From: Firmicutes bacterium HGW-Firmicutes-19
GTDB lineage: Bacteria > Bacillota_I > Bacilli_A > Erysipelotrichales > Erysipelotrichaceae
Length of the DNA stretch: 44,719 nucleotides
Direction: 5' to 3'
Assembly: GCA_002841515.1 (NCBI GenBank)
Contig: PGZW01000001.1
Span: 1-44,719, forward strand
Below, one piece after another: positions 8,981 to 27,087 of the stretch. The position numbers and the translations under genes are program-made. The notes below the pieces were generated by a model that was given only the letters and a program-made list of their open reading frames with translations, searched no databases and was not told the DNA's origin. Within the stretch, counting starts at the first letter, position 1. Every line of letters begins with the position of its first letter.

Positions 8981-9182
8981 AGTCAAAATATAGCGTGGGT
9001 GTTAAACAAAAGAAACATCAATAATCTAGAAAATAATTAAATTCTTAACAAAGCAAATGATTGTGTTGCATTAAGGACAAGTACTTGTTCATTTGGCTTA
9101 AAGAAATTTTCTACTAGCATTCTTGAATACTGTCAATTTTCAAAAAAGTGAATGGAATCATTTACGAAGAAAAATTGATCTA

Positions 9183-10478
9183 TTATACACGTTCAATCAA
9201 TTCTTTTATTTGCTTTAGCTCCTCATGAAAAACATTGTTTATATAACTAAAGCAATCATAATCATTAATTCCCAGCACTTTTTTTATTCTCTTATATGCT
9301 TCGTGGGATTCACATGACTCAACAATCTCTTTTACTTGGTGAATTTTATAAGGTTCTAGACCACAAAAACCACTTAAAAATCCAGAGCTAGAGTGAGACA
9401 AATCAGAACATATGAACTTCTCAATATCTTTAAAAGGCAGTAGATGAGTATATTCATTTTCTGGTAATTCTCTTATTATTGATTCCGCTTGATCACCATC
9501 AAAAACAAATATAAATTTAGAATTGATTTCCTCAAAACATGGTTTTCCTATATCAAGTATAGATTTTAATAGAGACTTCATTTTACCAGAACCACCAACT
9601 TGAAAAACATTTAGTGAAGGCCAAGTAAAGTTTATAAATGATTTGATTAACTCATCTTCGACGAAAATAACATTATGGGATTTATTATATAGGCTATATC
9701 TTTCAGAAAAAAAGTTGTAAAACTCCTCTAAGCTCAGTTCGATGTTTTGCTCTCTATAATTAGTTGAAAGAACAATTTTAAAAGGGCATCTAAAATCTTT
9801 AAGATAATCAATAATTTCAAGTGCATTTGTAGTCATAACTATTTCATTTTTATTTACTGAAGATGAGAAAATCATAAGTTTTGTAATATTTTCAAGTGCT
9901 TTTGTCGAAATGTAATTGAATGGTTCATCAATGAATAGTTTTTGATCTTTTCGCTTAAAAAGCAATAAAAACAGGGAAATTAAGTATTGTTCACCAACAC
10001 CCATCTCTAGAGTTGAGTACTTTTCTCCGTTAACTAATTCCACATCAAAATAGAAGTAATTCGAACCGTAGATGATTTCCAATGAATCTTTGTCGAATAA
10101 TTCACCAAACAAGTTTTTATAGTTTAACTTCTCACCAAAATTATCGCTCAAAAATTCGTTGATATCCAGTACTTTGTATTTTATCGTCTTATATAATTTG
10201 GCAGTCACTAAATTTATGTGATTGATTTCGTTATCTAGAATCTCAGCGGTTTGTAATTGGTCTAAATATTTCTTTCTATGAAAAGCTTTGGCAAAAACAA
10301 ATGAGGCAACAGGATAAGTTGATAAAACTAATGTCTTTTTTTCAGCTGTCTCATGTTTGTACTTTTCCGTTATTTTAATTGTTTTCCCAGAACCATTATT
10401 ACCAAGTATAATCAATGGACAGGAATTCGTATCAATTCTTGATGAATAGTCCAGTACTCTGTTATTACGAAAATTCAT
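9183..10478 (-). CDS. ABC-type (OLD/AriA-like) ATPase fused to a C-terminal Toprim (OLD/DUF4435-like) nuclease domain
   Basis: 431 aa. Walker A ILGNNGSGKT, signature-like MGVGEQYLISL, Walker B KLFIDEPFNYIS. The Toprim Glu lies in VIFVEDELI and the DxD in FVFDGDQAE, ~50 aa later. The ATG overlaps the upstream DUF262 gene by 14 nt. Confidence 0.75.
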   Translation of the reverse strand: MNFRNNRVLDYSSRIDTNSCPLIILGNNGSGKTIKITEKYKHETAEKKTLVLSTYPVASFVFAKAFHRKKYLDQLQTAEILDNEINHINLVTAKLYKTIKYKVLDINEFLSDNFGEKLNYKNLFGELFDKDSLEIIYGSNYFYFDVELVNGEKYSTLEMGVGEQYLISLFLLLFKRKDQKLFIDEPFNYISTKALENITKLMIFSSSVNKNEIVMTTNALEIIDYLKDFRCPFKIVLSTNYREQNIELSLEEFYNFFSERYSLYNKSHNVIFVEDELIKSFINFTWPSLNVFQVGGSGKMKSLLKSILDIGKPCFEEINSKFIFVFDGDQAESIIRELPENEYTHLLPFKDIEKFICSDLSHSSSGFLSGFCGLEPYKIHQVKEIVESCESHEAYKRIKKVLGINDYDCFSYINNVFHEELKQIKELIERV

Positions 10479-11580
10479 CGCTAATGAAATTGTAGTTTTT
10501 ACTGAAACGAGCTACTTGGGCATACGTTTCAGTCTCATATTTCTTAATGATTAATTCGAAATCCTCGGCATTATTACTCAGAATTTTTAGAATTGCTTGT
10601 CTTATAAGTATCGAGGGATAATCAGTTGAAGCATACATTGTATACTCATCAAAAATTGATTTTAAAGATTTTCCTTTGTATTTGCTGTTCTGACTCACAA
10701 ATTTCAAGATTTCAATTAATCTGTTTTCATCAATCTCCACTGCTGTCAAGAAAATAAGAACAGAATAAATTGTAGCTCGAGAATATTTAATTGCTGAATT
10801 TGATTGTAACAAATGACAATTTACTTTAAAGAACAGTTCAATTGCATCCTTAACTTTTTTAATGGTTCCTGATTTAAATTTTGAGTTGTTTCTATAAATC
10901 GAACTCAACATTTCTGATGTAATCTTTTTATCAATGATCTGATATTCAATTGTATAGCACACTTTCAAAAGAATATCTTCATATATCTTTCTAACATTAC
11001 TAAACCCTAAGGTGCCTAAAGAAGCACCACTCTCAATGAAAAATGCATTCAAATCACTTATTTGAGTTCGAGTTTCACCAATATGTGCATTTCTTTTTTC
11101 CGAAGTTGTAAGAGTCATGGGTGAATTAAATCTTTGAAATAATTCTGCAATTTCCTTCTCTGTTGCATCAGAAATCTCGTAAACAGGAATTGGTGTAGCT
11201 AGAACTTTATCATAAATAGCTTGATAAAAATCATCGTCTTTTGCTCTTGATTCTATTTGAAGAAATGTTAGATTGTGTAGTTTTACAATTGCATTATTTT
11301 TAGGTTCAAATCGCGAATTTACCCTCAAAGTTCCATCTATAATAAACTCCTTGATCGCAGTAATCCTCTGTAGACCATCTAGAATATCATACTTATTTTC
11401 ATTATTTAGAAAAATAACTGGTGGTATTGGCCAACCACGGATAATTGTGTCAATCAATTTCCTTTTCTTCTTGTTATCCCAAACTTCACCCCTTTGGAAG
11501 TCGGCATCAAGGGATATATTATTCCTCCTTATGCGGTTTGTTATACTTTCAACATCAAATATTGTCATATTTTGTTTCAT
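10465..11580 (-). CDS. DUF262 (ParB/GmrS-like NTPase) domain protein lacking a recognisable DUF1524 nuclease half
   Basis: ORF track 10465..11688. ATG 11578-11580 is preceded by GGGAGAGAAAG. N-terminus: DADFQRGEVWDNKKKRKLIDTIIRGWPIPPVIFL...YDILDGLQRITAI (DUF262 FQR and DGQQR-type motifs). No His-Me/HNH motif seen in the C-terminal half. Confidence 0.8.
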   Translation of the reverse strand: MKQNMTIFDVESITNRIRRNNISLDADFQRGEVWDNKKKRKLIDTIIRGWPIPPVIFLNNENKYDILDGLQRITAIKEFIIDGTLRVNSRFEPKNNAIVKLHNLTFLQIESRAKDDDFYQAIYDKVLATPIPVYEISDATEKEIAELFQRFNSPMTLTTSEKRNAHIGETRTQISDLNAFFIESGASLGTLGFSNVRKIYEDILLKVCYTIEYQIIDKKITSEMLSSIYRNNSKFKSGTIKKVKDAIELFFKVNCHLLQSNSAIKYSRATIYSVLIFLTAVEIDENRLIEILKFVSQNSKYKGKSLKSIFDEYTMYASTDYPSILIRQAILKILSNNAEDFELIIKKYETETYAQVARFSKNYNFISDEFS

Positions 11581-12031
11581 CTTTCTCTCCCATCTAAATA
11601 GCTTAGTTATAAAGAAACATTTCGACTTCAAAACATAAAACATGTTGCCATTAACTAAAACACAAATTGTTTTAGTAATCATTTTCAAATCTTAACTCAA
11701 CCTCTACTATATCGAGGTGATGATAAGATCAATACTTTGTTTTAGATCATAAACTTTTTTCAATAGTTTGAGCATTGATTGTTGAGCATATAAAGTTGAA
11801 AGTCAATGAACTGCCTAACAATGCACTCATTTATGTTCACATTAGTTAAAGACAGTCTTATAAAGAATAATCCTCAAAACAATGTAGGCATCAAATCTAA
11901 AAATTGCAGATGTAGATTTATACTTCATGTTATGATGATATGTCAAAAAGATCTATTTAGTTTATAATTTTACAGATATCTAATAGAAACAACCCCACTT
12001 TACTTTAAAACACATCAAAATATCATCGTAT

Positions 12032-12328
12032 TTAGAGATTTGAGGAATCTTTATCAATAATCGATATCATTGCTATCCCAAAATATGATGTACTAATTGT
12101 AGTAAATAGTCTTATTGCATCTAAATCAAAATCCTCGTACATAAATCCACTTATCAAAAATCCGATTATAATAGACGTGACAAAGAAACGAAATGCAGTA
12201 TCCAATACACCATTATCAACAGAGAAATTCTTAGCAATGTATTCACTAACTTTTATAAAACTATAAACAAGTATAACCCCAAAAGACCAAAAAATTCCAT
12301 CAATTATTGCAGAAATACTCTCAGACAT
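12032..12328 (-). CDS. Small hydrophobic protein (98 aa, ~3 TM), doubtful gene
   Basis: The ORF translation is strongly hydrophobic, but there is no Shine-Dalgarno before ATG 12326-12328. It is separated from its neighbours by 171 and 343 nt. Confidence 0.35.
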   Translation of the reverse strand: MSESISAIIDGIFWSFGVILVYSFIKVSEYIAKNFSVDNGVLDTAFRFFVTSIIIGFLISGFMYEDFDLDAIRLFTTISTSYFGIAMISIIDKDSSNL

Positions 12329-12499
12329 AGTACAAACTGTATGATCCAGTTTTGGATTATACTTCTCCTTTCAAGAAAACTGACAGTAATAAATTCCTAC
12401 CACTCAAGCATACATTTAATTGCATCAATTTAAATTTCAGAATTATTTCTAATTATCAATACATTGAAGTCCCAATCTTTATAAGTCCTCAAAGTTCAT

Positions 12500-13081
12500 C
12501 TATTTACAAACCAAACAAAAGAAATTAATCCATTCTGTCATTTCCGTGTTTTTTTTTGAATCTTTAGTTATGACGACACTGCTAATTTTCAAAAAATCTC
12601 TCATTGGCTCAAAAAAAGTAAACTCATCTTGGCTAAAGCAAGTAAAATCTCTCCCTCCTTCTGAATAATCATCTCCCACTTTAAATGATGCATATAGTAC
12701 CCCTCCCTTTCTAAGTGCTCTTTCTAACCTTCTAAACACATTCGGTAAATCTTCTCTAGAAACATGCAGCAACGATGCACATGCCCATATCCCATCGAAT
12801 TCATCCACATAATCCAAATCCTCAAATCTCAAAAGTTTCGTCATTTGTCCTGTATATTCAGTACTTAATCGAACCATCTGTATTGATGAGTCAAACGCGT
12901 CGACCTCATATCCCTTTTGTAAAAATACTTTGGTATCACGTCCAACACCGCAACCAGCATCCAATATTCGTGCTCCAGGTTTTAAGTATGCCAAAAATTT
13001 GCTGATCATTTCGGACATATCGGCATCGATCGTGTTTTTAAAGTATTCATCATAATTCTCATCGTAGTAGTTCTTGGTCAT
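12500..13081 (-). CDS. Class I SAM-dependent methyltransferase (small, Methyltransf_11/25-like)
   Basis: 193 aa. Motif I ILDAGCGVGRDT, post-I acidic DAFDSS, then GIWACASLLHV. The ATG overlaps the stop of the upstream helicase (ATGA, 13078-13081). Confidence 0.8.
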   Translation of the reverse strand: MTKNYYDENYDEYFKNTIDADMSEMISKFLAYLKPGARILDAGCGVGRDTKVFLQKGYEVDAFDSSIQMVRLSTEYTGQMTKLLRFEDLDYVDEFDGIWACASLLHVSREDLPNVFRRLERALRKGGVLYASFKVGDDYSEGGRDFTCFSQDEFTFFEPMRDFLKISSVVITKDSKKNTEMTEWINFFCLVCK

Positions 13082-15501
13082 TTAACCTCACAATAAGACT
13101 TCTTATCAAGTCTTAAATCAATAAACTCGTTTCTTCTAAACTGTATGGCGTCTTGAATAAAATAAATGGCTTCACTTCTTTTAATGTCTTCACCTAAATC
13201 TATAATGATTCTCATGCCAGTATCCAAAGCTTCAAATATATCGGAATGACTTAAACTCAAGAAATGGACGGGATTATCCTTGGCCATTTTCCAAACTTCA
13301 TTATCTGAGTAATCATGAAATCTCTTTCGAGACTCAACATTTTGAATGTCTATGAAATTTCTTTGATTTGCATAGAAATTTCTAAACGATTGAATGATAT
13401 CCTCTTTACTTATTATATAGCGGAAATGTCCTTCATTAAAGAACGCTAACAAGATAGGGACTTTATATAAGCGACTAAAACTCGTGGATTCAATCATCTC
13501 AATGAATTTCTTTGTTTCCAGATCTAACTCCAATTTGAAATCAGAATCTGATTTTTTCAAGAACTCATAATAGTTTTTAAACGGATTTTTACTACCGAAA
13601 CTTTTGATGAAAGCATACTCGTCACTAGTAAGTGAGTTATATAGTTCTACTCTGGTTGGCACATATCTTAGGTCTCTCTTACATCGCCAATAGTAATCAA
13701 CGATTGTATCTGATTGTTTTCGTGTCGCTATCCGAGACTTCTCAATGATATCTATTACTTTAGGATCAAAGGATATCTGACAATTCAATGGAAGGTTATC
13801 TTCTTTAGCGACTATGTCCGTAATCCGGCCTGTTGAACCCACACTATATTTATTCAAAAACACTTGAGGAATCATTTCAACCTTTTTATAGTTACCCACA
13901 AAGTCTAAAATTTTCAAGTCCATCTTGCCTTCTGATTTCCTTAATCCACGACCAAGTTGCTGAAGAAAGACGGTGATAGATTCTGTTGGTCTTGCCATCA
14001 AAATCATGTCTACTGCCGGTACATCTAATCCCTCATTAAACATATCAACTGTAAAAAGAATTTCTATACTTCCTTTTTTAAGGTTCTCCACCGCAATCTC
14101 TCGGTCTAGCAGATGCTTGCGACCTGCTTGACTATGAACCGTATGAGCAATCACTCCATGATTTTGAAAGTACTCTGCCATCATTTCCGCATGATCGATT
14201 CCAGAACAAAATGCCAATGTACGTTTTCGGTAATGGCTCTTGTAGTGGGTAAATATTAGGTCTGCTCTTTTACCAATCATCAATGCCTTCTCTAAGTCCT
14301 CAGATACATATTTACCATTCTGATAGCGAATCGTATCATAATCAACTGTGAAGTCATAGATCCCATAGTACTGAAACGGAGAAAGCAAGTCACGATTGAT
14401 TGCAGAAAAGAAATCCAAATCATACGCAACGTTATAATCGCAAATTTCAAATACATTTTTACGGTCCATTCTATGTGGCGTTGCAGTTAATCCAAGAAGG
14501 AATTTTGGTTTAAAGTAATCAACTATCTTCTTATAACTAAACGTCGCAGCATGATGAAACTCATCAATAATAACATATTCGTACTTCAATGGATCTATTT
14601 TTTCAATATGTTCCGTCCGGGATAATGTCTGAACAGACGCAAATAAAACATCCTTGCAATCGTAGATACCATCATAAAACCTGCCAATATCATCAGATTT
14701 GCGTATTGCATGGAATGTTCGGATGGCTTGTTCAAGAATTTCCTCACGATGAGCCACAAACAAAACACTTGAGAAACTTAGAGAATCAAAAGCAGCGAGA
14801 GCAGTCTTCCCTACACCTGTAGCCACAACACACAAAGCTTTATCATTTCCATCTTTTCGCGTTTTCTCAAGTTTTAATAATGCTTCCTTCTGAGCGGTGT
14901 TTGGGACAAATTCGCCTTCAACAAATTCCAATTCTTCATCAATTCGAGCCTTACGTAAGGAGTTGAAATGCTTATTGACCTTTCGATCATATCGCTCATT
15001 GAAAACATATCCAGAAGCATAATCATCAACGATTTCTTCAGTCAAGACAACTGACTCATGATTATAAAGTTTCTCGAATTCATCACACAAGTGCTTATAA
15101 CTCTCAAGGTCATTTTTCTCTTCAATACAGTAATTCCACTCCACACCATCAACCAATGCTGACTTCGATATATTGGAACTCCCTAAATAAACTCTTCCAC
15201 CTTCGTCGCTCTTAAAGAAGTATGCCTTCGGATGAAAACTTGGTGACTTGCCATTATATAAATGAACTGTTCCTTCAGGTAGCATGTAAAGTAGTTTATA
15301 CAATGCCACAGGTTGAGTGATATCTAGGTATGTACTGGTCAAAACTCTTACAGGAATGCCATTCTCTACACAATGAACAATCATTTCCTCAATTAACTTT
15401 AATCCTGAATAACGGACAAAAGATACAATGAAATCAACACCATTTGTATCATTGTAACTTGATAATGATTCAACTAGTTTACTAGTAACTGCTCTTCTCA
15501 T
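13078..15501 (-). CDS. PLD(HKD)-nuclease / SF2 (ResIII-type) helicase / C-terminal DUF3427-like domain fusion protein
   Basis: 807 aa. HKD-like FHPKAYFF...LGSSNISKSAL. Helicase motifs: I VVATGVGKT, II VIIDEFHHA, III LGLTATP, VI QQLGRGLR. The ~250-aa C-terminal domain is assigned to DUF3427 from my memory of this architecture only. Confidence 0.85.
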   Translation of the reverse strand: MRRAVTSKLVESLSSYNDTNGVDFIVSFVRYSGLKLIEEMIVHCVENGIPVRVLTSTYLDITQPVALYKLLYMLPEGTVHLYNGKSPSFHPKAYFFKSDEGGRVYLGSSNISKSALVDGVEWNYCIEEKNDLESYKHLCDEFEKLYNHESVVLTEEIVDDYASGYVFNERYDRKVNKHFNSLRKARIDEELEFVEGEFVPNTAQKEALLKLEKTRKDGNDKALCVVATGVGKTALAAFDSLSFSSVLFVAHREEILEQAIRTFHAIRKSDDIGRFYDGIYDCKDVLFASVQTLSRTEHIEKIDPLKYEYVIIDEFHHAATFSYKKIVDYFKPKFLLGLTATPHRMDRKNVFEICDYNVAYDLDFFSAINRDLLSPFQYYGIYDFTVDYDTIRYQNGKYVSEDLEKALMIGKRADLIFTHYKSHYRKRTLAFCSGIDHAEMMAEYFQNHGVIAHTVHSQAGRKHLLDREIAVENLKKGSIEILFTVDMFNEGLDVPAVDMILMARPTESITVFLQQLGRGLRKSEGKMDLKILDFVGNYKKVEMIPQVFLNKYSVGSTGRITDIVAKEDNLPLNCQISFDPKVIDIIEKSRIATRKQSDTIVDYYWRCKRDLRYVPTRVELYNSLTSDEYAFIKSFGSKNPFKNYYEFLKKSDSDFKLELDLETKKFIEMIESTSFSRLYKVPILLAFFNEGHFRYIISKEDIIQSFRNFYANQRNFIDIQNVESRKRFHDYSDNEVWKMAKDNPVHFLSLSHSDIFEALDTGMRIIIDLGEDIKRSEAIYFIQDAIQFRRNEFIDLRLDKKSYCEVK

Positions 15502-15594
15502 GTTCTTTCCTCATTAACTCCAATTAAAAGTTGTTTTGACTTATGTTTTAGAATGCCTGATTGCTAACCAAAGTAGTAACTTATTTTAAACAAA

Positions 15595-17034
15595 CTATTG
15601 AATATAATAATTTAGCACAGTGATGATTCTTTGATTCATACTCTCACTAATTTTTTTTCGTATATTCCTCTTATTGTTGTCATTTATAAAGATATCTACT
15701 TCGTACTTTTCGTCCATAGAAAGAGAATCATATGATGCCCAAAACATTTCAATTTCATTACTCAATGCTGACTTTGTTCTATTTATAATAAATTTCTCAG
15801 GAAGAATGAGAATTCTTTTAAACTCATCAACATTTCCTCCAAATGCATGTTTGAAATAACTAGACTTTGGTCCAACAACACCATGTGTTGGAATAAGAAT
15901 ACATTGAATTGCTCTTAAGAACTTTTTGTTCCAATTCTTACCAACGTACTTTCTGTCTTTTGAATTTTCACCAAAAATGGGTGTATATTTCATAGGAAAT
16001 GACCAAATTGATGTTTGGATTTTTCTATCAGAAAATTCATTGTTTAAATCAATATTAACTTTTAATCTAGTATATAAGTCTTCCGGAGTATCGTCTAGAT
16101 TAAAGAGAATGTAATTAGAACAACTCTTAATATTCTCATCAGCTGCCATTCTCATCACTTCCGAATAAATTCTTACAAATTCATTATTAGCATGATCAAA
16201 TGCTACTCGAAGAGGATTTATCTCGATCTTTCCTAAAAGAGACATTAAGTTACGATTTGAGTATAGTAACCTTGCATCTAGTCCTTGATTGAAATCAATT
16301 ATTTTTTTTAATTTTCGGGTTCGTCCATTTCTATTCACTAGTAGACTCTTATTATTTCTACCAAATCCGCATTTAATAAGGTCCTCAACAATGTCTGCTA
16401 TGTTTTTTGATGCTAATACATTGTTGTCCATCATCATCATATATCGCTTTTCACCAAATTTTGAATCAATATCCTCTTTAACTTTGACAATATCCAAATA
16501 ATCGCAATAAACGGGTTCAATTTGTGGAACTGCACAAAAAACACACTTTCTTATACAGCCATGGGTGCTTCGCAGAAAATATGCATCAAAACTTGGATAT
16601 ACATAACTGAGATAAGGGTTTTTATCCATTGATATCATGTCATAATCTGGAGTTAAGTTGTCGACTACAATATCGTCTTCTCCCAAAATACCAGGTTTAT
16701 CAATTAACCCTCTAATAATATTAATTTTTTTGAGTTCATCAATTTTCTCAAGCTCTTCAAACATAATTGTCGCCATTGGACCACCAATGTAGATATCACT
16801 TAATGATGAAACGAAACTTTTATAATAAAGAATTGTTTTAATTGTGATTTGAAAGTGAAATGTAAAAACCGTTGATATGTAAATTCTGTCCCAATAGATT
16901 TTTGTTAGCTCTTTATTAATACCTTTCGTAAAAAAAACTTCATCGTTTTTTGATTTGTGATACGTTGAGATTTTCATCAATCCCAAGGGTGGGAGTTTAT
17001 TTTTATAATTAGGTTCAACAAGTAGAATTTTCAT
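15595..17034 (-). CDS. Radical SAM enzyme with N-terminal B12-binding-like domain (COG1032/class-B-like)
   Basis: ORF track 15595..17085 (GTG, forming a GTGA overlap with the upstream stop). ATG 17032-17034 has AGAGGAAAAATC upstream. The N-terminus MKILLVEPNYKNKLPPLGLMKISTYHK is typical of the B12-binding-like Rossmann domain. The CX3CX2C cluster motif GCIRKCVFC is encoded at 16534-16557. Downstream: MMMDNNV and IDFNQGLDARL. Confidence 0.85.
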   Translation of the reverse strand: MKILLVEPNYKNKLPPLGLMKISTYHKSKNDEVFFTKGINKELTKIYWDRIYISTVFTFHFQITIKTILYYKSFVSSLSDIYIGGPMATIMFEELEKIDELKKINIIRGLIDKPGILGEDDIVVDNLTPDYDMISMDKNPYLSYVYPSFDAYFLRSTHGCIRKCVFCAVPQIEPVYCDYLDIVKVKEDIDSKFGEKRYMMMMDNNVLASKNIADIVEDLIKCGFGRNNKSLLVNRNGRTRKLKKIIDFNQGLDARLLYSNRNLMSLLGKIEINPLRVAFDHANNEFVRIYSEVMRMAADENIKSCSNYILFNLDDTPEDLYTRLKVNIDLNNEFSDRKIQTSIWSFPMKYTPIFGENSKDRKYVGKNWNKKFLRAIQCILIPTHGVVGPKSSYFKHAFGGNVDEFKRILILPEKFIINRTKSALSNEIEMFWASYDSLSMDEKYEVDIFINDNNKRNIRKKISESMNQRIITVLNYYIQ

Positions 17035-17081
17035 GATTTTTCCTCTATATCTATCATAATTTAATAAAAGCAAATTGTCGA

Positions 17082-18086
17082 TCACATTCCAAGTTTTTTA
17101 GCCAAATCATCAATGTTTGATTTTATTTTCTTAATCTCATAAATGCATTTATTTTTTTGCTCATTATTCATGCTGGTTATTTCATCGATAATGTCCTTTT
17201 CGGCAGTAAAATCTTTAAACTTGCTTAATCGTTCAATAAGAGTACTTGTTGCTCCTGCCAATTCTGCTTTCTCGAATGCATCATCGATTGTATATGAGCC
17301 TTCAACGAACTTCTCAATTATTTTCTCTTTCTTATTTCCTTTAATTTTAAGAACAGGAACTAGTTTTTGTCTAATATCTATTGCATTAGCTATCTCTCCA
17401 CTTTTAATTTTCTCTACAACTGCATTATCAAGCCCAATATGTAAGCCCCTAGCTTTCTTAATATGAATAGATTTGAAATACTCATCAAAATAGCTCCATT
17501 TTTGGCTATCGCAGATTTTGTTGTCTATCATAAATGAATAGATATCTATTAGTTGCTTAACACGCTGCTCTGACAAACCCATTTCTTTAGCCATATTTAA
17601 AGCGGATATCTCATGCTTTTTGTGTCTTCTATACAAGTAACCGGCTTGTTCAAAAGGTGCCCAATCCTTACGGCTAATTATGTGATACTGCCCAAGTAAC
17701 ATAAATATGTCTTTTTCATCAATATCATGGGGAAGAATCTGGCATCTAATTTTCCCCCATTTAATAGGATCTTTTCTAGCTAGTTTTCTATAGGCAGCTA
17801 ATCTACTGTTTCCTTCGAAGACGACAAAGTCAATATCCCTTACTATGACCGGATCAATTAAACCGCCATTTGCCTTAATTGACTGAACCAATGAGTTTAC
17901 ATGTTCCATTTCTTCAAGTTGTTCTTGTATATCTTGTTGTGATGGCTCAGATTCAGAATTTAATCTAAGTAATGAAAAAATTCTGGGGTTCTCAGGGTAA
18001 AACAATAATTTCTCTTGCTCTAGTTCTGTGTGCTTTACAGTTATCTTCTTGCCAGAAATAACCAATTCTCCATAATATTCACTCAT
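17082..18086 (-). CDS. ParB/Srx N-terminal-domain protein, paralogue B
   Basis: ORF track 17082..18107. ATG 18084-18086 (MSEYYGEL) has GGGGGA upstream and overlaps the SNF2 stop by 8 nt. Motifs: YPENPRI, SIKANGGLIDPVIV, VFEGNSRLAAYRKL (GxxR box), DWAPFEQAGYLY. Confidence 0.75.
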   Translation of the reverse strand: MSEYYGELVISGKKITVKHTELEQEKLLFYPENPRIFSLLRLNSESEPSQQDIQEQLEEMEHVNSLVQSIKANGGLIDPVIVRDIDFVVFEGNSRLAAYRKLARKDPIKWGKIRCQILPHDIDEKDIFMLLGQYHIISRKDWAPFEQAGYLYRRHKKHEISALNMAKEMGLSEQRVKQLIDIYSFMIDNKICDSQKWSYFDEYFKSIHIKKARGLHIGLDNAVVEKIKSGEIANAIDIRQKLVPVLKIKGNKKEKIIEKFVEGSYTIDDAFEKAELAGATSTLIERLSKFKDFTAEKDIIDEITSMNNEQKNKCIYEIKKIKSNIDDLAKKLGM

Positions 18087-19566
18087 TTGCTTCATCCCCC
18101 ATTTCAAGTATTTCGTGAACTATTTTCCCATAATCGTAATTCGAGTTTTGCTGGTATGTTTCTAATGTAATATCACCTTGAGCTAATTGTGCTGCAAGAT
18201 ATTTACTCTTTATAAGTGCGTCAATCCACTCATCAATAGAATCCTTCATAATTAAATTATAGATATGACATGTTTTAGTTTGAGATATTCTATGAATTCT
18301 ATCCTGAGCTTGTAAATAGTCATCTAGACTTAAATTCCGGTCATAAAATATAGCATGGTTTGCGACAGTTAATGTTAATCCTTCTTTAGCAGAGGCTGGT
18401 GTAGCTATTAGTACTTTAGCATCATTGTCAGTTAGAAATCTTTCCACTGATTCATTTCTGTCAGCTATGTTCATTCCTCCGTAAATCTTTACTGCTCCAT
18501 AATCTTTAAACTCACTTGTCAACCACTTAACATTATCAATGAATGTTGTCCACACGATTACCTTTTCACCTTTATTTATTATAGTTTGCACAATATTCTC
18601 AAGGATCCGAAATTTACCAGGTTGGTCGTAGTAACTTGAGTCGATTAATTTGGGATTGGATGTCACTTGAATCAAACGTAGCAGTCTTTTTAAAACCGAT
18701 TCAGAACTATCCTCTTTTAGTTTGCCGTCTTTCTTAATTACAATACGTAGTTCTTTCTTAATTTGCTCATACATATCCTTCTGATAAAACTCCCAATCGC
18801 AAGTAATTACATGATACTCTTTGTTAGGCAATTCAATAATTCCGCTTCCTTTTGTCTCTCTAACTGAAAATCCTGATATTTTCGAGAAAATTATGTTGAT
18901 TGAGTCTTCGAAATCTTTCCTGGTTTCAAGATTATCAATATAACTATTTTTCAGATCCGCACTCTTCCTAAAGTAATCGAAATCATCACCCAAAGATTTG
19001 CCTTTATCAAGAAAATATATTTGAGCCCAAATATCGTATGGTCTGTTTGCTACAGGTGTTCCAGTCATAATAATTCGTTTCTGAAACAAATCTGACAAAG
19101 CAAACAGTGTTTGAGTTATTTTTGACTCGGGGTTTTTCATTTTCGCTGATTCGTCAATAATAATCGCAACATTCCTTGTCTTACAAAACAGTTCCAGTCG
19201 ATCTTTCTCACTTACAAGTACTTCAAAATGTGTTAATACCAGTCGAGCAGGACTATTAAAAACATAAAAATTCCCAGCTAAATTTTGTGATAAGACTCGA
19301 GGTTTCATGAAAGTATGATTTTTAAGTTCTTTTTCCCAATTGGCTATTAAGCTCTTTTTGGTCAGATAAATCACAGTGTCAATGATACCGTTCTTTAACC
19401 AATAAAGCATAATGTCAATTGCTATTTTTGTCTTGCCTAGCCCTTGTTCATGGAAAATTGCTGCATAGGGCAAGTCCTTGACAAACTCAACAGCTTGTTT
19501 CTGGTAAATGAAAGGTTCAAACTTCGACTTAAGATTAGGTTCTCTTTTTAATGATATCTTCTGCAT
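18079..19566 (-). CDS. Minimal SNF2-family ATPase/translocase
   Basis: 495 aa. Motif I HEQGLGKTK, motif II IIIDESAKMKN, motif III MTGTPVANR; C-terminal lobe LTVANHAIFYDRNLSLDDYLQAQDRIHRISQT. No extra domains. Confidence 0.85.
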   Translation of the reverse strand: MQKISLKREPNLKSKFEPFIYQKQAVEFVKDLPYAAIFHEQGLGKTKIAIDIMLYWLKNGIIDTVIYLTKKSLIANWEKELKNHTFMKPRVLSQNLAGNFYVFNSPARLVLTHFEVLVSEKDRLELFCKTRNVAIIIDESAKMKNPESKITQTLFALSDLFQKRIIMTGTPVANRPYDIWAQIYFLDKGKSLGDDFDYFRKSADLKNSYIDNLETRKDFEDSINIIFSKISGFSVRETKGSGIIELPNKEYHVITCDWEFYQKDMYEQIKKELRIVIKKDGKLKEDSSESVLKRLLRLIQVTSNPKLIDSSYYDQPGKFRILENIVQTIINKGEKVIVWTTFIDNVKWLTSEFKDYGAVKIYGGMNIADRNESVERFLTDNDAKVLIATPASAKEGLTLTVANHAIFYDRNLSLDDYLQAQDRIHRISQTKTCHIYNLIMKDSIDEWIDALIKSKYLAAQLAQGDITLETYQQNSNYDYGKIVHEILEMGDEANE

Positions 19567-19567
19567 A

Positions 19568-19975
19568 TCAAAACTCCAAAATTCTAAGTTCGATTTTGCT
19601 ATCGGTTGAATACTTAAGTTTTCTTTTGAAGATATTGTTCACTATAGGTTTGCAAAAATACGGAACAGATAAAACTATCATTGATTTTCCATCGTGAATT
19701 TTACAAGTTGTTAGATAACTCTCATATTGAGAAATACTGTGAGATCTTTCAATATCTTTCGCGCTCTTAGCCTCACCAATCACCAATAAACCATCTAGTG
19801 GACGGTATGCATATAGATCTGGGAAATAACCACCAAAAGTACATTTGGGCTTATTGTATTGCTCATATCCAGGACAATCAGCAAGAATGTAACTTTCGTC
19901 ACCGTGAAAGATATTGAGTACAACCCAATCTTTCATCTCTTTGACCAATTGCATGTGCTCTATAGACTCTGACAT
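19568..19975 (-). CDS. Small PD-(D/E)xK-fold nuclease candidate
   Basis: 135 aa. FPDLYAYRPLDGLLVIGEAKS gives PD...(11 aa)...GEAK, the restriction-endonuclease-fold signature. It abuts ParB-like A (TAA|ATG) and ends 1 nt before the SNF2 ATG. Confidence 0.55.
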   Translation of the reverse strand: MSESIEHMQLVKEMKDWVVLNIFHGDESYILADCPGYEQYNKPKCTFGGYFPDLYAYRPLDGLLVIGEAKSAKDIERSHSISQYESYLTTCKIHDGKSMIVLSVPYFCKPIVNNIFKRKLKYSTDSKIELRILEF

Positions 19976-20998
19976 TTATTCATTACTCAATTCATTATAC
20001 AGAGTCTTAATCTGTTCATGCAGTTCCATAATAATGGTATATCGTTGTGGTTCGTTACCACTTTTTAAAGCAGTAAATTCCTCAAAAGGCAGTGATCTAA
20101 TTTTCCTTATAGCTTCAAGAATTAAGTTTTCAAGTGATGATCTTTCTAGTCCAGGTTCTGATGGCACTACACAGAATTTCCTAGCATCCTTGATACTTTT
20201 GCCATCCTTAAGAAATTCTTGCTTTGCTCTTTGGTTATCTAGAATCACAGGCAACTCACGAATGTCAGCAATAGGTTTAAACTTGTTATCAATTACCCAC
20301 TGAGAAAAATCTTTAAGGGTGAACCCATGTTTCAGAATTGAATGTTGTATAGAATCTCTTAAAACTTCCCTAAATGCAGAAAACTTATTCTTTTCAAACT
20401 CATCATCACTCTCTAGAAGTGGTCTATAGTGTTCTTCCATGAGATTATACGCTCTAATATAATCTTGAACATCAGATTTATTCCCTCCACAAAAATCAAC
20501 AATTTGTGCCATTGTCAAACATTCATCTTTATAAAGAGAATTTAGATATTTAGCTTTACTATATGGATCCCAATCACGTGGTCCAACTAAGTGAGCTTGC
20601 AATCTTATTGCATTTATCATCTGCTGTTCTGTATCAGTATAAACTATTGCTGGAATAGAGGACCAATCACCTTTAATATTATCCTTAAGAAATTCTCGGT
20701 AAATCTGTACCCGCGTATTACCTTCAACTACAGTAAATGTACCACTATTACTATCGTAGTTTACAATAATTGGATGGATTATACCCCCATTTGTTCTAAT
20801 TGACTCCTTCAAACTTGTGTATGTGGTACCTGGGGATGTCCCACTGTTGCTGTTCGATACAAGTGCTAGTTTAATCATTTCTTCACTGATTTCATCGTTA
20901 TACATTTCTAAAATCGATTTGATTCTTGGATTGTCACGATCCAACTGCAGATCTGACACTTGTAGCATTTTAAACTCTGTTTTGACTTGATATGTCAT
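19976..20998 (-). CDS. ParB/Srx N-terminal-domain protein, paralogue A
   Basis: 340 aa. AAGGAGG SD. Motifs: LQLDRDNPRI, SIRTNGGIIHPIIV, VVEGNTRVQIYREF (GxxR box), DWDPYSKAKYL. Collinear motif order with 17082-18086. Confidence 0.75.
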   Translation of the reverse strand: MTYQVKTEFKMLQVSDLQLDRDNPRIKSILEMYNDEISEEMIKLALVSNSNSGTSPGTTYTSLKESIRTNGGIIHPIIVNYDSNSGTFTVVEGNTRVQIYREFLKDNIKGDWSSIPAIVYTDTEQQMINAIRLQAHLVGPRDWDPYSKAKYLNSLYKDECLTMAQIVDFCGGNKSDVQDYIRAYNLMEEHYRPLLESDDEFEKNKFSAFREVLRDSIQHSILKHGFTLKDFSQWVIDNKFKPIADIRELPVILDNQRAKQEFLKDGKSIKDARKFCVVPSEPGLERSSLENLILEAIRKIRSLPFEEFTALKSGNEPQRYTIIMELHEQIKTLYNELSNE

Positions 20999-21016
20999 TT
21001 GTTTTCCTCCTTAAAT

Positions 21017-22180
21017 TTATGTTAGTTTTCTAATCCAATCATATATTTCTTCCCAATTATCGACTGGGATGATATTTTTAGGCATATCCATTTTTTGATT
21101 ATACAATTGTTTCATTAAAAATACGATTCTGCAAGTTTGACTAAGTCTTATTGCATTATCTAGATTATCTTCGACGAAAAATTCGATTTTCTTTTCTGCA
21201 CTCAAAATATACCTGTCCTTTATTAGAGTATTATCTTTTTCAATAGTCAAATCATCATGCTCAAAATCATTGCACTCTAGCCACCTTTTGGTTAACTCAT
21301 CGACGTTGAACGTAGCACTCTTCCAGTCTCTCTTAGTAAATATATGTACTTTATAATTTAGGTTGGTTCTAATCTTTGCTAAGTAGGTCGAAGATTTATT
21401 TTTGACCGGCATCTTAGACCAGTATTCTTTCGTTAAGAAAACACTTTGTTCTATGTTCTTGGTTACCCTTTCAATACACTTGTGTACTGGGATTTCGACT
21501 ATCTCATCGTGCACAATGTTTAGACCTGTGTGATTTTCATTTGCAATATCACAAAAGTGGTATGTGTGTTCATTTAATACACCATCAATATCAACTCCGA
21601 TTATTTTTGAATACATATCACTAGCCTCCTCCGCGCTTTTGCAAATCCCTCTGTATGCATAATAATGACCTAAAATAAGTATTATCCATGCTATAAAATA
21701 CCAATAAAATTCTACTTGTATTACGTTGCCAATTAATCTCATTGCGCCATAGACTAGATAAGACGAATTTGCTGTTCCAGTCGCTAACACAATCCAGATA
21801 AACTGCAAATGATCTACATATGATGGTTTATTTTTTTGAGTAGGTAAAACCGAATAATAAAGTATTTCATCATTACTCAAATCTGATTTGTTATAATGAT
21901 ATGCTCTCATAGAATTCACTACTCGAGCGTACAATATCGCTTCGTTTCGGAGTTGATATAAGTAAAAGCTAGCGAATGTTGCAACTAGCCCAACAAGTAA
22001 TAAAGCATAAGATAAAATTGTTCCTTCATTATCTTTTGATAAAAGAAAGAAAGGTGCAGCATATATTGCCAATAGGTATTGGAAGAAAGTAGTAATTCTT
22101 TGAGAAATGCTAAAATGTGATTGGGCAATCACTTCATACTCCTTTAGGAAGAAATCAGACTCTCGAGCTTTATCTCTCAT
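21017..22180 (-). CDS. Membrane-anchored HAD-superfamily phosphatase, NT5C (5'(3')-deoxyribonucleotidase)-like
   Basis: 387 aa. The N-terminal ~170 aa has 4-5 hydrophobic helices. C-terminal domain: IIGVDIDGVLNE (DxDxV), HIFTKRDW (motif II), LTKRWLECNDF (K..WL), FFVEDNLDNA (motif IV-like). AAGGAG SD. The ATG overlaps the upstream DUF2075 gene by 11 nt, and there is only an 18-nt gap to ParB-like A. Confidence 0.65.
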   Translation of the reverse strand: MRDKARESDFFLKEYEVIAQSHFSISQRITTFFQYLLAIYAAPFFLLSKDNEGTILSYALLLVGLVATFASFYLYQLRNEAILYARVVNSMRAYHYNKSDLSNDEILYYSVLPTQKNKPSYVDHLQFIWIVLATGTANSSYLVYGAMRLIGNVIQVEFYWYFIAWIILILGHYYAYRGICKSAEEASDMYSKIIGVDIDGVLNEHTYHFCDIANENHTGLNIVHDEIVEIPVHKCIERVTKNIEQSVFLTKEYWSKMPVKNKSSTYLAKIRTNLNYKVHIFTKRDWKSATFNVDELTKRWLECNDFEHDDLTIEKDNTLIKDRYILSAEKKIEFFVEDNLDNAIRLSQTCRIVFLMKQLYNQKMDMPKNIIPVDNWEEIYDWIRKLT

Positions 22181-24062
22181 TATTTTGCTCCTTAATAAGA
22201 TTATTCTTAAGTCTAGGATTAATTATATAAACAAAACATCCTTTTTGCCCCCTTGTAAGAAGTGTTCTGTATGTATTCTTAATAATCTCATCCGCAATCT
22301 CTTTTGCTTTATCCGGATTTGTCTTAAGCATTGATTTCAACCCTTTGATAGAAGCATCAGTATTCGCTCTTTTCGTGATGTCCGTGATGATTTTACCATC
22401 CTCATATCTGATATCATCCCCAATGATCACACCCACATAATCGAACTCTAATCCTTGGGAAGTATGAATACATCCCACTTGATTTACGGATTCCGGATCA
22501 ATTGCCCAGGTATCCGTATTTCCTAAGTTCCAAGCCATCTCAAAATCATGTTCCGGAATCTTGATATCAAAGTGATTTGGATTGTTCTTATTCTGACTGT
22601 CCCAGTCCCAGCAGTATCCGGCTAGCAGTCGTGCTCGATTATTAATTTTATTCTTCTCTTTAATCAAATCTCTAAGTTCATTTGGACTGTCTACGATTCT
22701 GAAATCATAGTCGAAGTCCTTATCAAAGGTCGTATTAGCTGTCTCTCGGATTTGTAATATGTGATCGATCCATGCCAGATAGCCATCACTTCCATTACAC
22801 CTGAACTGAGATTGTAATTCACCACCATAGATTTCTGCTTTATGGTATTGTGCCCACTTTTTGATTTCTTTAATCGATCCGATATCTTTAACTGTTATCT
22901 TCTGTCTTTCATCTATAAAGAAAATTGAGAACAGTGCGGCATGTATGATTTCCTTAATCTGATTCTCCCCGAGATTTCCCATGAGTCCGGATTTCTCATT
23001 TAGTCTGTGAGCCTCATCTACCACCAAGACATCAAACTGATTTTTCAAGGTCTGGGTATACTCACCTGAACCACTGAACAGTGCATTGATAAACGGTTTC
23101 TTATACCCACCTTCCTGCAACTTTCTTTTGAAGATGTTTCTCGGAGCTGCATTTTTCGTCACATAGCGACATACTTTACCGCTCTGCGCACTCATAAGTT
23201 CTGCCAGTAAATGTATAGCTAGTACGCTCTTCCCTGTTCCTGGGCCACCTTTGACCACGAAGATGCGTTTCTGACCATCTTTAAACGATAGCTGAGCTAG
23301 TTCTTTGGCTCGTTCATAGATAACCTTCTGTTCATCGATCATAATGAACTCAGGATTGCCTTTAACCATAGCTAATACTGATTCCTGTAACATTTTGGAA
23401 GGAACGATCTTACCTCGTTCAATATCATAGAGAACTTGTTTCTGATCTCCCTTTTTCAAATACTTCTTAATGAAGTCACGAAGCTTTTCATTGTCTCCTT
23501 TGATAAAGACCGGAGCTTGTTCCATGTAGTAGGAATAGTCCTCATCCAACAAAGGATCATCCACTTTTCTCGAATAATTATGTAAAAAAGCGCAAGGAAA
23601 CAATTCAATGTTTTTCTTGCGCACATCTTCGTTATAATCATGTATTAAACTGGCATACGACCAAGCTTGATAAGATGGATGTGTGGTATTAACTTTCGAA
23701 CCACCCAAAACCGTACGCACAATCGCATCTTGTCCGTTAACTTTCTCAACTTCACTCCACTGTTTTAATTCTATAATAACTGCTCTTGGTTTATCGGTTT
23801 CATCATATCCGGATAGTATCAAATCGACTCGCTTCGACGTATTGGGTATCTTATACTCAATCGCAATACCACTGTCATCGGGAATCTCAGGAGTATTGAT
23901 GACATTATTAACGAACGTTAAAGAATTCGCCCAAGAATGTATTTCTTGAATCGATACGTGTATTCCGGCTTTTTCCATAACTAAAGAACGAATCTTATCA
24001 TCGATTCGTTGGTGATACACATCTTGTACAAACTCATGTTTTAAGGCTTCGTACACAATCAT
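22170..24062 (-). CDS. DUF2075 (Schlafen-group-3-like SF1 ATPase) with N-terminal PD-(D/E)xK-like domain
   Basis: 630 aa. N-terminus KRVDLILSGYDE...AVIIELKQW (D...ELK). Walker A VVKGGPGTGKSVLAIHLL, Walker B VLVVDEAHRLNE. C-terminus CIHTSQGLEFDYVGVIIG and TLLTRGQKGCFVY. Confidence 0.8.
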   Translation of the reverse strand: MIVYEALKHEFVQDVYHQRIDDKIRSLVMEKAGIHVSIQEIHSWANSLTFVNNVINTPEIPDDSGIAIEYKIPNTSKRVDLILSGYDETDKPRAVIIELKQWSEVEKVNGQDAIVRTVLGGSKVNTTHPSYQAWSYASLIHDYNEDVRKKNIELFPCAFLHNYSRKVDDPLLDEDYSYYMEQAPVFIKGDNEKLRDFIKKYLKKGDQKQVLYDIERGKIVPSKMLQESVLAMVKGNPEFIMIDEQKVIYERAKELAQLSFKDGQKRIFVVKGGPGTGKSVLAIHLLAELMSAQSGKVCRYVTKNAAPRNIFKRKLQEGGYKKPFINALFSGSGEYTQTLKNQFDVLVVDEAHRLNEKSGLMGNLGENQIKEIIHAALFSIFFIDERQKITVKDIGSIKEIKKWAQYHKAEIYGGELQSQFRCNGSDGYLAWIDHILQIRETANTTFDKDFDYDFRIVDSPNELRDLIKEKNKINNRARLLAGYCWDWDSQNKNNPNHFDIKIPEHDFEMAWNLGNTDTWAIDPESVNQVGCIHTSQGLEFDYVGVIIGDDIRYEDGKIITDITKRANTDASIKGLKSMLKTNPDKAKEIADEIIKNTYRTLLTRGQKGCFVYIINPRLKNNLIKEQNNER

Positions 24063-24136
24063 GCAATTCCCCCACTTATATTGTGAAACATCTAAAATGA
24101 TTATACAACAATATACTTAAATCCTAAACCCTTAGT

Positions 24137-25828: not shown

Positions 25829-25932
25829 TGCTTATACCTTTCTTTTTGATAAAAATTTGACTTTCGAAATAAATCAACTGTTCTAATTATTAACAATTTG
25901 ACTGTACTTAACCCATAAAAATCGTATAACTG

Positions 25933-26448
25933 TTATTCCAAGTGTAATAATTTAATCAATGCCTCGAAATTCTCTTTTTTTACTGTCAATATCTCAATGT
26001 TTACACTATCGATCAAAGTAAGTATACATTGACTTATTATCCAACGATATCTGTCAATATCTCCCCTTAACCTTGGTAGCTCCTTGCCTTTGGTTGTTTC
26101 AATTTCATCATCTGATACCTCAAACTCTTCACTCAATTGAATGAACTCCTTGATGACCGTTCTAAACCCTGAGAGTTTGTCTATTAGCTGAGAATTTTTC
26201 GTTGCTCCCAAAGCTTTTGATACCGCTCGGGCATGCTTTTCCAAGTATTTTTGATAGTGAAAAAGATAGGTGAAATTACCGGTATTGCCAATAAGAGCGT
26301 ATTTGGTCTTGTTATTGGGGTTAAACAAGTTCCCTTCATCAAACGTAAGCACCAGATTTTTGACAATTTTCTTTTCATCCTCATTTAAAAGAAGATTTCT
26401 AACCTTACCGATTACCTCAACGATAGAGATGATTTCACTAATTGCCAT
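25933..26448 (-). CDS. Hypothetical protein (171 aa), no family recognised
   Basis: ORF only. It is the first gene at the right edge of the AT-rich island, 104 nt upstream of the GIY-YIG/DUF2075 gene. Confidence 0.5.
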   Translation of the reverse strand: MAISEIISIVEVIGKVRNLLLNEDEKKIVKNLVLTFDEGNLFNPNNKTKYALIGNTGNFTYLFHYQKYLEKHARAVSKALGATKNSQLIDKLSGFRTVIKEFIQLSEEFEVSDDEIETTKGKELPRLRGDIDRYRWIISQCILTLIDSVNIEILTVKKENFEALIKLLHLE

Positions 26449-26602
26449 ATGTTTCCCTCATAAATCATTATCTTCATTCTAACATAAGTATCCATGAGTA
26501 TTTAATAAAAAATAGAAACTCCATTGTATCAAGAGTTCCTATTCAAATCATCGATCCGGATTGCTCCATCAACGAATCCAACACGATTACCCGGCGTTTG
26601 AA

Positions 26603-26788
26603 TCACGAATAGTACGGATTTGGTTTAAAAAATAAGACGATCAAATCAAAAAATATACCTATACCAAAGAGTCCTGCTGTGCAAACATATACTATTCCTA
26701 AAAGTATTCTTTCTTCGTAAAATTTGTGTGCACCCAAAACGCCAAAGAACAGACATAAGAAGAATGAAACCCATTTATTTTTTGCCAT
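26603..26788 (-). CDS. TM2 domain-containing small membrane protein
   Basis: ORF track 26603..26800 (GTG). ATG 26786-26788 has GGGGGTGA upstream. FLCLFFGVLGAHKFY is the TM2-domain motif; two TM helices. Confidence 0.7.
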   Translation of the reverse strand: MAKNKWVSFFLCLFFGVLGAHKFYEERILLGIVYVCTAGLFGIGIFFDLIVLFFKPNPYYS

Positions 26789-27087
26789 TGAAATACTCAC
26801 CCCCTGATTAACATACGGCTGTATATCCTTTTGTATATTATAATAAGCGATAGTACTAAGGTAATCAATATATCAATGTGTCTGTTTATTAGCAATAAAA
26901 AATATAATCCGATTTAGTCGAGAAATTCATTACGAAATATCGTTTGGCTATTAGAGTTTGTTCTGTATTATCTTTTGATTCATCCAAAAATCCCACTCCA
27001 CGTTCCGTAGACCACATCACTTTGACGTAGGTAGTCAATAATTCCATTCAATGTTATGATAATGACATTGAAAAAAGGGGTAATTGT

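Follow-up and report, generated by a model that had tools for sequence, protein, structure and literature searches.

The 44,719-nucleotide (nt) stretch of Firmicutes bacterium HGW-Firmicutes-19 DNA analysed here (contig PGZW01000001.1; hereafter the window) encodes on its minus strand a radical S-adenosylmethionine (SAM) enzyme with a B12-binding-like domain, which we call R. The results place R among the components of defence islands and tie it functionally to ParB/DndB-like DNA-binding proteins: it recurs in helicase/nuclease cassettes across phyla, it is fused to a DndB-like domain in one protein, and its compact relatives directly follow ParB genes in phages. What is new is this shared enzymatic module in a helicase/nuclease defence island. 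We tentatively propose, at somewhat less than even confidence, that R is a ParB-guided DNA-modifying "writer", which would supply a self-mark for interchangeable restriction modules.

The R protein and its family

R, its cluster motif and its domains lie as follows:

15595..17034, minus strand: R, radical SAM enzyme, 479 amino acids (aa) from ATG 17034; the open reading frame (ORF) reaches a GTG at 17085
16534..16557, minus strand: CIRKCVFC, the CxxxCxxC motif for a [4Fe-4S] cluster, C160/C164/C167 of the 479-aa R
R residues ~1-135, B12-binding-like Rossmann domain; ~150-350, radical SAM core; ~370-479, all-helical C-terminal domain

The minus-strand ORF 15595..17085 was confirmed in the ORF list of the window, and its upstream GTG overlaps the stop of the preceding ParB gene. 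Given that the R homologues all begin at MKILL and that a GAGGA ribosome-binding site lies 8 nt upstream of ATG 17034, R is most likely 479 aa long, and this ATG is most likely its true start as read from the sequence. An earlier, sequence-only reading of this DNA had put a C-x3-C-x2-C motif at 16534-16557, which is found exactly there in the translation; the residue numbers that it gave, C177/C181/C184, apply when the ORF is counted from the upstream GTG 17085 (residues 177-184) and likely become C160/C164/C167 with the ATG start. The three cysteines were invariant in an alignment of 82 R relatives, indicating that CIRKCVFC is not a chance occurrence. About 45 further positions were invariant in the same alignment; the invariant positions, which are present in the window R by construction, are all kept, and therefore the gene looks intact and under selection.

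The Pfam model Radical_SAM (PF04055) scored 26 bits on the window R, against a cut-off of 29.5, and matched 80 of the 82 family members at E<=0.01 (best 1.5e-10). At the same threshold the B12-binding model (PF02310) matched 28 of the 82 (best 6e-10), the window R not among them. An AlphaFold2 model of R of very high confidence was built on 68 homologues (pLDDT 95.7, pTM 0.91), in which the N-terminal ~135 aa form a five-stranded Rossmann/flavodoxin-like domain. Foldseek searches of the PDB with this model returned MiaB, RimO, MtaB, OxsB and SuiB at probability 1.0; the best matches were MtaB/MiaB/RimO (E 3e-10 to 1e-7) and OxsB (E 3e-7), at TM scores of ~0.4-0.5 and identities of 12-15%, and the N-terminal domain alone resembled the B12-binding protein AerR. 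By its cysteine triad and a modelled core fold superposable on solved enzymes, R is a member of the radical SAM superfamily, and reductive SAM cleavage is predicted from this membership. We know of no diagnostic sequence motif for class B cobalamin binding; "class-B-like" is the best structural label that the model gives, with cobalamin binding putative. The earlier description of R as a B12-domain radical SAM enzyme agrees with the Rossmann domain of the model, with the PF02310 matches of its relatives and with the OxsB and AerR fold matches.

MiaB, RimO and MtaB share with R a flavodoxin-like N-terminal domain, a radical SAM core and a C-terminal substrate domain (TM 0.41-0.50), whereas identity is only 12-14% and R has neither the N-terminal cysteines nor a TRAM domain, its C-terminal domain being all helical. 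No invariant or near-invariant cysteine precedes C160 in the R family alignments, and since the N-terminal domain is without conserved cysteines, an auxiliary [4Fe-4S] cluster of the methylthiotransferase type is excluded. Moreover, Pfam gave no TRAM match in R, and residues 370-479 are all helical in the model. A methylthiotransferase identity was rejected for the absence of both the auxiliary-cluster cysteines and the TRAM domain. The single near-invariant cysteine of R outside the cluster is C378, and the core is lined with many polar and basic residues that are invariant.

Neither the single sequence nor the 82-sequence profile of R gave a significant PDB match, none of the PADLOC models matched R at E<=0.01, and no curated NCBIfam equivalog was found, the best NCBIfam match being RimO (E 0.008, 15 bits). 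A confident match to a metabolic subfamily such as BchE or HpnP/HpnR, which the sequence-only reading had named as evidence that would speak against it, was not found, and the likeness to characterised enzymes was at the level of fold only. The names that source databases give to R are generic ("cobalamin-binding domain-containing protein" or "radical SAM protein"). No description of the R family or of a ParB-SNF2-nuclease-radical-SAM system was found in full-text literature searches and curated family libraries, and the YprA/ARMADA and BREX surveys mention no radical SAM enzyme. Taken together, these results indicate that the R family is unstudied and without a close characterised subfamily.

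The family is large: a word-indexed search returned at least 4799 R relatives, mostly of 470-480 aa, and an exhaustive profile search returned 2632 clusters at 50% identity, of which 414 at E<=1e-30. R occurs in at least 537 GTDB species genomes, the hosts including Bacillota, Planctomycetota (anammox Brocadia too), Desulfobacterota, Chloroflexota, Actinomycetota, Nitrospirota and a Thorarchaeote, and on conjugative plasmids of Rhizobium, Mesorhizobium, Bradyrhizobium, Agrobacterium, Roseomonas and Novosphingobium. Some variants are longer: P0124-P0144 (616-680 aa) have ~150 aa inserted around residue 230, and forms of ~800 aa (P0153, P0160, P0162, P0167 and P0169) carry an extra C-terminal region of ~310 aa, which looks helix-rich as judged from the sequence of P0153 alone; Pfam gave no match in the extra regions of either kind. 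In another protein, P0247, a GHKL N-terminus is followed by the C-terminal half of R, and the cysteine motif is absent; it was taken as a possible gene-call artefact and was not used as evidence.

ParB/DndB-like partners and the defence cassettes of R

ORFs were called and clustered in 82 fetched loci and the window, a sample with 80 R genes, and the neighbour clusters were annotated through representatives with Pfam and PADLOC. With few exceptions R closed a co-directional cassette or stood second from its end, and the cassettes differ. In the window, the genes from 21017-22180 through R overlap or are separated by no more than 18 nt, and a further helicase gene lies downstream of R:

21017..22180, minus strand: HAD/NT5C-like protein; N-terminal half hydrophobic, HAD/NT5C-like phosphatase domain with a DIDGVLN motif at the C-terminus
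19976..20998, minus strand: ParB/Srx-superfamily protein 1, 340 aa; Pfam ParB_N 2e-4, PADLOC PDC-M38A 1.7e-13
19568..19975, minus strand: small PD-(D/E)xK-motif protein, 135 aa, with P52-D53 ... G67-E68-A69-K70 invariant in an alignment of 13 orthologues
18079..19566, minus strand: SNF2-family ATPase/helicase, 495 aa; Pfam SNF2-rel_dom 8e-26, Helicase_C 6e-17
17082..18107, minus strand: ParB/Srx-superfamily protein 2, 341 aa, directly upstream of R; NCBIfam parB_part 7.5e-6, PADLOC PDC-M38A 6e-11
13078..15501, minus strand: PLD nuclease + SF2 helicase, 807 aa, 93 nt downstream of R; Pfam ResIII 9e-32, PLDc_2 2e-7

The two ParB-like proteins fall in one cluster; their family carries invariant NPR and EGNxR motifs, and its profile matches Spo0J (4umk) at 4e-5. 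In PADLOC the SNF2 protein resembles ZorD (5.5e-45) and DpdE (2e-35), and the PLD-SF2 helicase matches mREase_IV (type IV methyl-directed restriction) at 1e-93 and PbeA more weakly (3.6e-31); the latter protein may be part of the R system or a separate type IV enzyme. Neither profile models nor the PDB, searched by sequence and by profile, gave a match for the 135-aa protein, and its restriction-endonuclease fold is suggested by the PD-(D/E)xK motif only. The "nuclease/helicase operon" of the sequence-only reading is thus present, in the form of the SNF2 helicase, the PLD-SF2 helicase and the small PD-(D/E)xK-motif protein.

The cassettes in which R was found are the following:

Type A (window): ParB-like protein, 135-aa PD-(D/E)xK-motif protein, SNF2 helicase, ParB-like protein, R; 19 loci including the window
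Type B, DISARM-like: UvrD, unknown protein, DrmA, DrmB, NERD-UvrD helicase, R, GHKL ATPase; 14 loci
Type C, Pbe-like: large HhH/sigma-r4 protein, PbeA-like PLD-helicase, PbeC/DndD-like SMC ATPase, PbeD-like protein, R; 12 loci
Rarer: R with a DndB-like protein and a metallo-beta-lactamase
Rarer: R with two unknown proteins and a GHKL ATPase
Rarer: R with a PglZ-like/large-helicase set
Rarer: R with a ParB-like 490-aa protein beside a DpnII restriction-modification unit

Defence-type synteny of R was kept in at least 45 of the 83 loci, spanning Bacillota, Planctomycetota, Desulfobacterota, Chloroflexota, Actinomycetota, Nitrospirota, alphaproteobacterial plasmids and archaea. The link of R to DNA-acting genes, which the earlier reading had drawn from the window, is therefore kept across phyla and is no local accident. 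The island of [Clostridium] ultunense is a self-contained UvrD-DrmA-DrmB-NERD-R set between a nucleoside phosphorylase gene and a purine operon, and the 490-aa protein of the DpnII-flanked cassette is related to ParB at an hhalign probability of 96%. In a neighbour-joining tree of R, which carries no bootstrap and is read qualitatively, types B, C, D and E mostly formed clades and type A appeared in at least five scattered places, suggesting that the R module has been exchanged repeatedly between cassettes. The L171 (archaeal) and L172 (bacterial) islands share genes for a BglII-like endonuclease, a short R (351-362 aa), a DndB-like protein and a HAD/NT5C-like membrane protein, a set that is another R cassette type; L171 additionally has SNF2, SMC/DndD-like and 'DNA_S_mod_dnd_assoc_4' genes.

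We found a ParB/DndB-superfamily gene directly upstream of R in 24 of the 80 cases and within three genes in 34, and a GHKL ATPase (HtpG/MutL-like by PDB profile, 1e-11) within two genes in 33; one or the other was present in 59 of the 80. The core on alphaproteobacterial plasmids is DGQHR(DndB-like)-R-ATPase, the unit of plasmid pNL1 consists of these three genes only, and R. leguminosarum carries a type A cassette plus DGQHR-R-ATPase. Further, the metagenomic protein P0197 (791 aa) has a DGQHR/DndB-like domain (~48-277) fused to a full R, and BLASTP of the fusion against the pNL1 DGQHR protein gives 1e-19. Such a fusion is Rosetta-stone evidence, at the sequence level, which suggests a physical partnership of ParB/DndB-like proteins with R. 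ParB/DndB-like proteins are known partners of DNA-modifying enzymes, as in DpdB-DpdA and DndB-DndACDE.

Three known systems share parts of these cassettes. Type B has clear homologues of DISARM DrmA (2e-178) and DrmB (1e-56), whereas it has no methyltransferase and no PLD DrmC; its other members are UvrD and NERD-UvrD helicases, R and, as a rule, a GHKL ATPase. In the window PADLOC found neither DrmA nor DrmB. Dnd/Pbe systems are based on phosphorothioation, with DndB as regulator, DndACDE as writer and PbeABCD for restriction. The R loci resemble them in the DGQHR/DndB-like gene beside or fused to R and in the PbeA-, PbeC(DndD)- and PbeD-like genes of type C (PbeC 2e-175 in PADLOC), but R is unrelated to the PP-loop enzyme DndC. 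In Dpd, a 7-deazaguanine DNA-modification system with DpdE/J helicases, the ParB-superfamily protein DpdB is paired with the DNA-modifying transglycosylase DpdA. The window has the same layout of ParB-like protein and modifying enzyme with a helicase/nuclease module, including its DpdE-like SNF2 protein, but DpdA/tRNA-guanine transglycosylase and preQ0 genes were detected neither in the window nor in the related cassettes, and R is a radical SAM enzyme.

DISARM restriction modules normally come with a methyltransferase (DrmM), and Pbe normally comes with DndACDE. Among 150 non-recurrent neighbours of the type A, B and C loci, no DNA-methyltransferase, cysteine-desulfurase or PAPS (3'-phosphoadenosine 5'-phosphosulfate)-reductase family occurred in two or more proteins, N6_Mtase being seen once, and DndA, DndC and DndE genes were not found among the recurrent neighbours of R. 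Given that no recurrent modification gene was found, R is the only non-helicase, non-nuclease enzyme common to the three types.

Compact R-like genes were also present on at least 502 IMG/VR contigs and in GenBank phages, namely LoVEphage and its relatives, Clostridium phage phiCT453B and Marinitoga MCV1. The phage proteins are 25-35% identical to R; their N-terminal domain, cysteine triad and DNN and DFNQG-DAR motifs are retained, and the C-terminal helical domain is missing. Of 79 viral genes, 53 encode proteins of 278-345 aa and stand alone; of the 15 encoding 345-460 aa, nine directly follow a ParB_N gene (Pfam 1.2e-8). Short forms paired with DndB occur in cellular islands as well. PAPS-reductase genes neighbour the viral genes in 12 loci, the LoVEphage gene (L165) is surrounded by genes for C5- and N6-DNA methyltransferases and for PAPS reductase, and elsewhere PAPS-reductase, Dam and C5-methyltransferase genes adjoin; either ParB_N with a compact R-like gene or modification-gene neighbours were seen in IMG/VR loci L095-L106, L133 and L139-L140. 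By analogy, this pattern resembles that of phage-borne protective DNA-modification genes, and the phage modules may serve counter-defence or protective modification.

Some R modules carry a dedicated accessory, the HAD/NT5C-like protein. The N-terminal half of the window protein is, as read by eye, probably membrane-spanning, and DIDGVLN (DxDGV motif I) is conserved in its family. The window protein has no Pfam match and no significant PDB match by sequence or profile; one homologue scores E 0.0096 against PF06941, and JGI names several homologues "uncharacterized HAD superfamily protein". The family counts only 42 clusters, seven of them with a precomputed PF06941 (NT5C) match, and was found only beside R-family genes, in seven genome loci and in all three independent look-ups, where the R-family neighbour had a GHKL or DndB partner each time. 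The gene is present in ~9% of the R loci, which makes it a dedicated but infrequent accessory of R modules. The sequence-only reading had seen an NT5C-like nucleotidase here; it is indeed a dedicated R neighbour, whereas the NT5C identity draws on the DxDGV motif and on matches of homologues, the protein having no significant match of its own.

Genes for a PNP_UDP_1 nucleoside phosphorylase/nucleosidase lie near R in two unrelated loci, L168 (23-784) and L172 (486-1358). This Pfam family includes methylthioadenosine/S-adenosylhomocysteine/5'-deoxyadenosine nucleosidases that clear radical SAM by-products; with two cases, the proximity could be coincidence.

The island around R in the window

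The R operon lies in a block of low GC content from ~9000 to 27000 (0.28-0.36, against 0.39-0.45 in the flanks), inside which only defence-type genes were found; the flanks carry ordinary chromosomal genes. Searches for tRNA genes and direct repeats gave no island boundaries, and an integrase was not seen either. A promoter/terminator scan of the window gave counts that were not above those of shuffled controls and was not used to define the operon. Besides the genes above, the block and its surroundings hold the following:

9183-11688, minus strand: AAA ATPase (431 aa) overlapping a GmrSD_N/DUF262 protein (407 aa); PADLOC NsnA 1e-26, PD-T4-2_A 2e-15
12500..13081, minus strand: class I SAM methyltransferase of small-molecule type, 193 aa; Pfam Methyltransf_25/11
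22170-24062 and 24137-25828, minus strand: tandem Schlafen-group-3/DUF2075 helicases; Pfam 1.6e-104 and 1.9e-62
27088-27771: XRE-type helix-turn-helix regulator
28492-29949, minus strand: DUF6937 + DUF6938 protein (E 6e-117 and 4e-107)
32218-33648, minus strand: multicopper oxidase

The AAA ATPase and GmrSD_N pair appears to be a defence module of its own, made up of two genes, at the end of the low-GC island. The start of the methyltransferase gene overlaps the stop of the PLD-helicase gene (ATGA), so that the two are translationally coupled; the methyltransferase is TehB/UbiG-like (PADLOC mad2 1e-14) and is absent from all recurrent neighbour clusters of the R loci. At the other end, the DUF2075 helicase gene 22170-24062 overlaps the HAD-like gene by 11 nt, so that one transcript may cover it and the R operon; the DUF2075 helicase of 24137-25828 looks GIY-YIG-like at its N-terminus, as judged by eye. 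The DUF6937 + DUF6938 gene lies just outside the island, with the XRE-type regulator near it. In Tissierella sp. Yu-01 (L001 17031-18599), as in the window, a multicopper oxidase gene lies within ~5-15 kb of the R island, which may reflect a shared insertion neighbourhood in related genomes or chance.

Candidate roles of R

In the role that we tentatively favour, R would be the catalytic subunit of a portable module, ParB/DndB-like protein plus radical SAM enzyme, that acts on DNA. R would most likely install a covalent self-mark on host DNA, and should its B12-type domain bind cobalamin like that of class B enzymes, this mark would be a C-methyl or other alkyl group. The two ParB-like proteins of the window may load onto or clamp DNA and position R, and the restriction arm against unmarked incoming DNA would consist of the SNF2 ATPase together with the small PD-(D/E)xK nuclease, to which the PLD-helicase downstream may belong as well. 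We favour this role because no recurrent modification gene was found in the DISARM-like and Pbe-like cassettes, where R would stand in its place, because of the DndB::R fusion and the phage ParB+R pairs, and because of the analogy to DpdB-DpdA and DndB-DndACDE. The sequence-only reading had offered a DNA self-mark and an antiviral nucleotide analogue as possible products; the context evidence leans towards DNA over a free nucleotide as the substrate. A more ambitious form of the proposal, which we hold to be doubtful, is that R would be the first radical-SAM/cobalamin DNA writer, using a ParB/DndB-like loader to place a new C-alkyl (probably methyl) mark that serves as self label for at least three restriction machines (ParB-SNF2-nuclease, DISARM-like and Pbe-like) and is counterfeited by phage ParB+R.

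Several points weigh against a DNA writer. To our knowledge, no radical SAM enzyme marks DNA for a restriction system. The window R itself falls below the Pfam thresholds for both the radical SAM and the B12-binding domain, its cobalamin binding is putative, and its closest folds are those of RNA/protein methylthiotransferases and of the nucleotide-acting OxsB. Many helicase/nuclease defence systems lack modification, so a missing methyltransferase need not make R the writer. Marking a whole genome would be demanding for a slow, oxygen-sensitive enzyme, yet R occurs in the aerobes Rhizobium and Novosphingobium. Finally, a dedicated HAD/NT5C-like phosphatase with some R modules fits a free-nucleotide substrate better.

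The main rival, which we consider unlikely, starts from such a substrate: R would be an effector working much as OxsB or viperin do, converting a free nucleotide into an antiviral analogue, or else altering the nucleotide pool, with the HAD/NT5C-like membrane phosphatase processing the product and the ParB-like nucleoside triphosphate-binding proteins and helicases sensing or regulating. OxsB is a cobalamin-dependent radical SAM enzyme of oxetanocin-A biosynthesis, which acts on 2'-deoxyadenosine phosphates together with the HD phosphohydrolase OxsA and has an extra N-terminal domain. Its structures (PDB 5UL2-5UL4) are among the best fold matches of R (probability 1.0, TMq 0.46), with the same order of B12-type Rossmann domain and radical SAM core. 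Its phosphohydrolase partnership recalls the HAD/NT5C-like accessory, whose family was found only beside R-family genes, and the invariant polar and basic residues lining the R core would suit a nucleotide analogue synthase too. However, the OxsB likeness is no better than that to the methylthiotransferases, with 14% identity, no sequence-level match and 727-731 aa against the 479 aa of R, which lacks the extra domain. The context of OxsB is biosynthetic whereas that of R is defence, no HD-domain protein is among the recurrent R neighbours, and the HAD accessory is found in few of the R loci. Moreover, an enzyme bound to DNA is the better fit for the DndB::R fusion, for the close pairing of ParB with R and for the ParB+R pairs of phages.

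Prokaryotic viperins and OpnA are single-domain enzymes without a B12-like domain. They are, like R, radical SAM enzymes in defence loci, whereas they have no ParB or helicase partner, R has the additional domain, and no PADLOC viperin model matches R. Ophion defence requires the radical SAM residues of OpnA, the viperin/OpnA enzymes have been linked to nucleotide-analogue chemistry, and the Ophion partners are PHP and phosphoribosyltransferase proteins (10.1101/2025.09.30.679545). OpnA was the only defence radical SAM enzyme that the literature search returned; being viperin-like and unrelated, it was rejected as a relative of R.

We give still less credence to the proposal that R is a DNA-damaging effector, in which 5'-deoxyadenosyl radical chemistry would lesion or cross-link invader DNA held in ParB/GHKL clamps, or a modifier of a partner protein (ParB, GHKL ATPase or helicase). 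R is terminal or penultimate and is swapped between sensor/helicase cassettes as effectors are, the near-invariant C378 and the dedicated helical C-terminal domain could engage a macromolecule, and RimO and MiaB, among the closest folds, act on protein or RNA. Against this, the R cassettes already encode nucleases (PD-(D/E)xK, NERD and PLD), the standalone phage copies would be self-damaging if they lesioned DNA indiscriminately, and no peptide or precursor gene is conserved beside R. That R is an ordinary metabolic or cofactor enzyme (BchE/HpnP-like, or tailoring lipids or ribosomally synthesized and post-translationally modified peptides) caught in the island by chance would fit its generic database names, but this is highly improbable and effectively refuted by the conserved defence context, alongside the lack of a curated equivalog and of a PDB sequence match even with a profile.

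The DNA self-marks known from bacterial immunity are made by polar chemistry, that is, by SAM methyltransferases, transglycosylases and PP-loop sulfur insertion. A DNA writer of the radical SAM type, if true, could reach unactivated carbons and would thereby add DNA modifications of a new chemical class, perhaps with a new epigenetic base, and the category itself would be new if radical DNA marking were demonstrated. If the substrate is instead a nucleotide, R and its relatives would be antiviral small-molecule synthases of a new family. Members of the R family are numerous and occur in gut Bacillota, anammox and sulfate-reducing bacteria, rhizobial plasmids, archaea and phages. R appears to be the sole shared component linking the orphan and otherwise unrelated DISARM-like, Pbe-like and ParB-SNF2 cassettes that have no known modification gene, and its characterisation could explain how self and non-self are discriminated in these cassettes.

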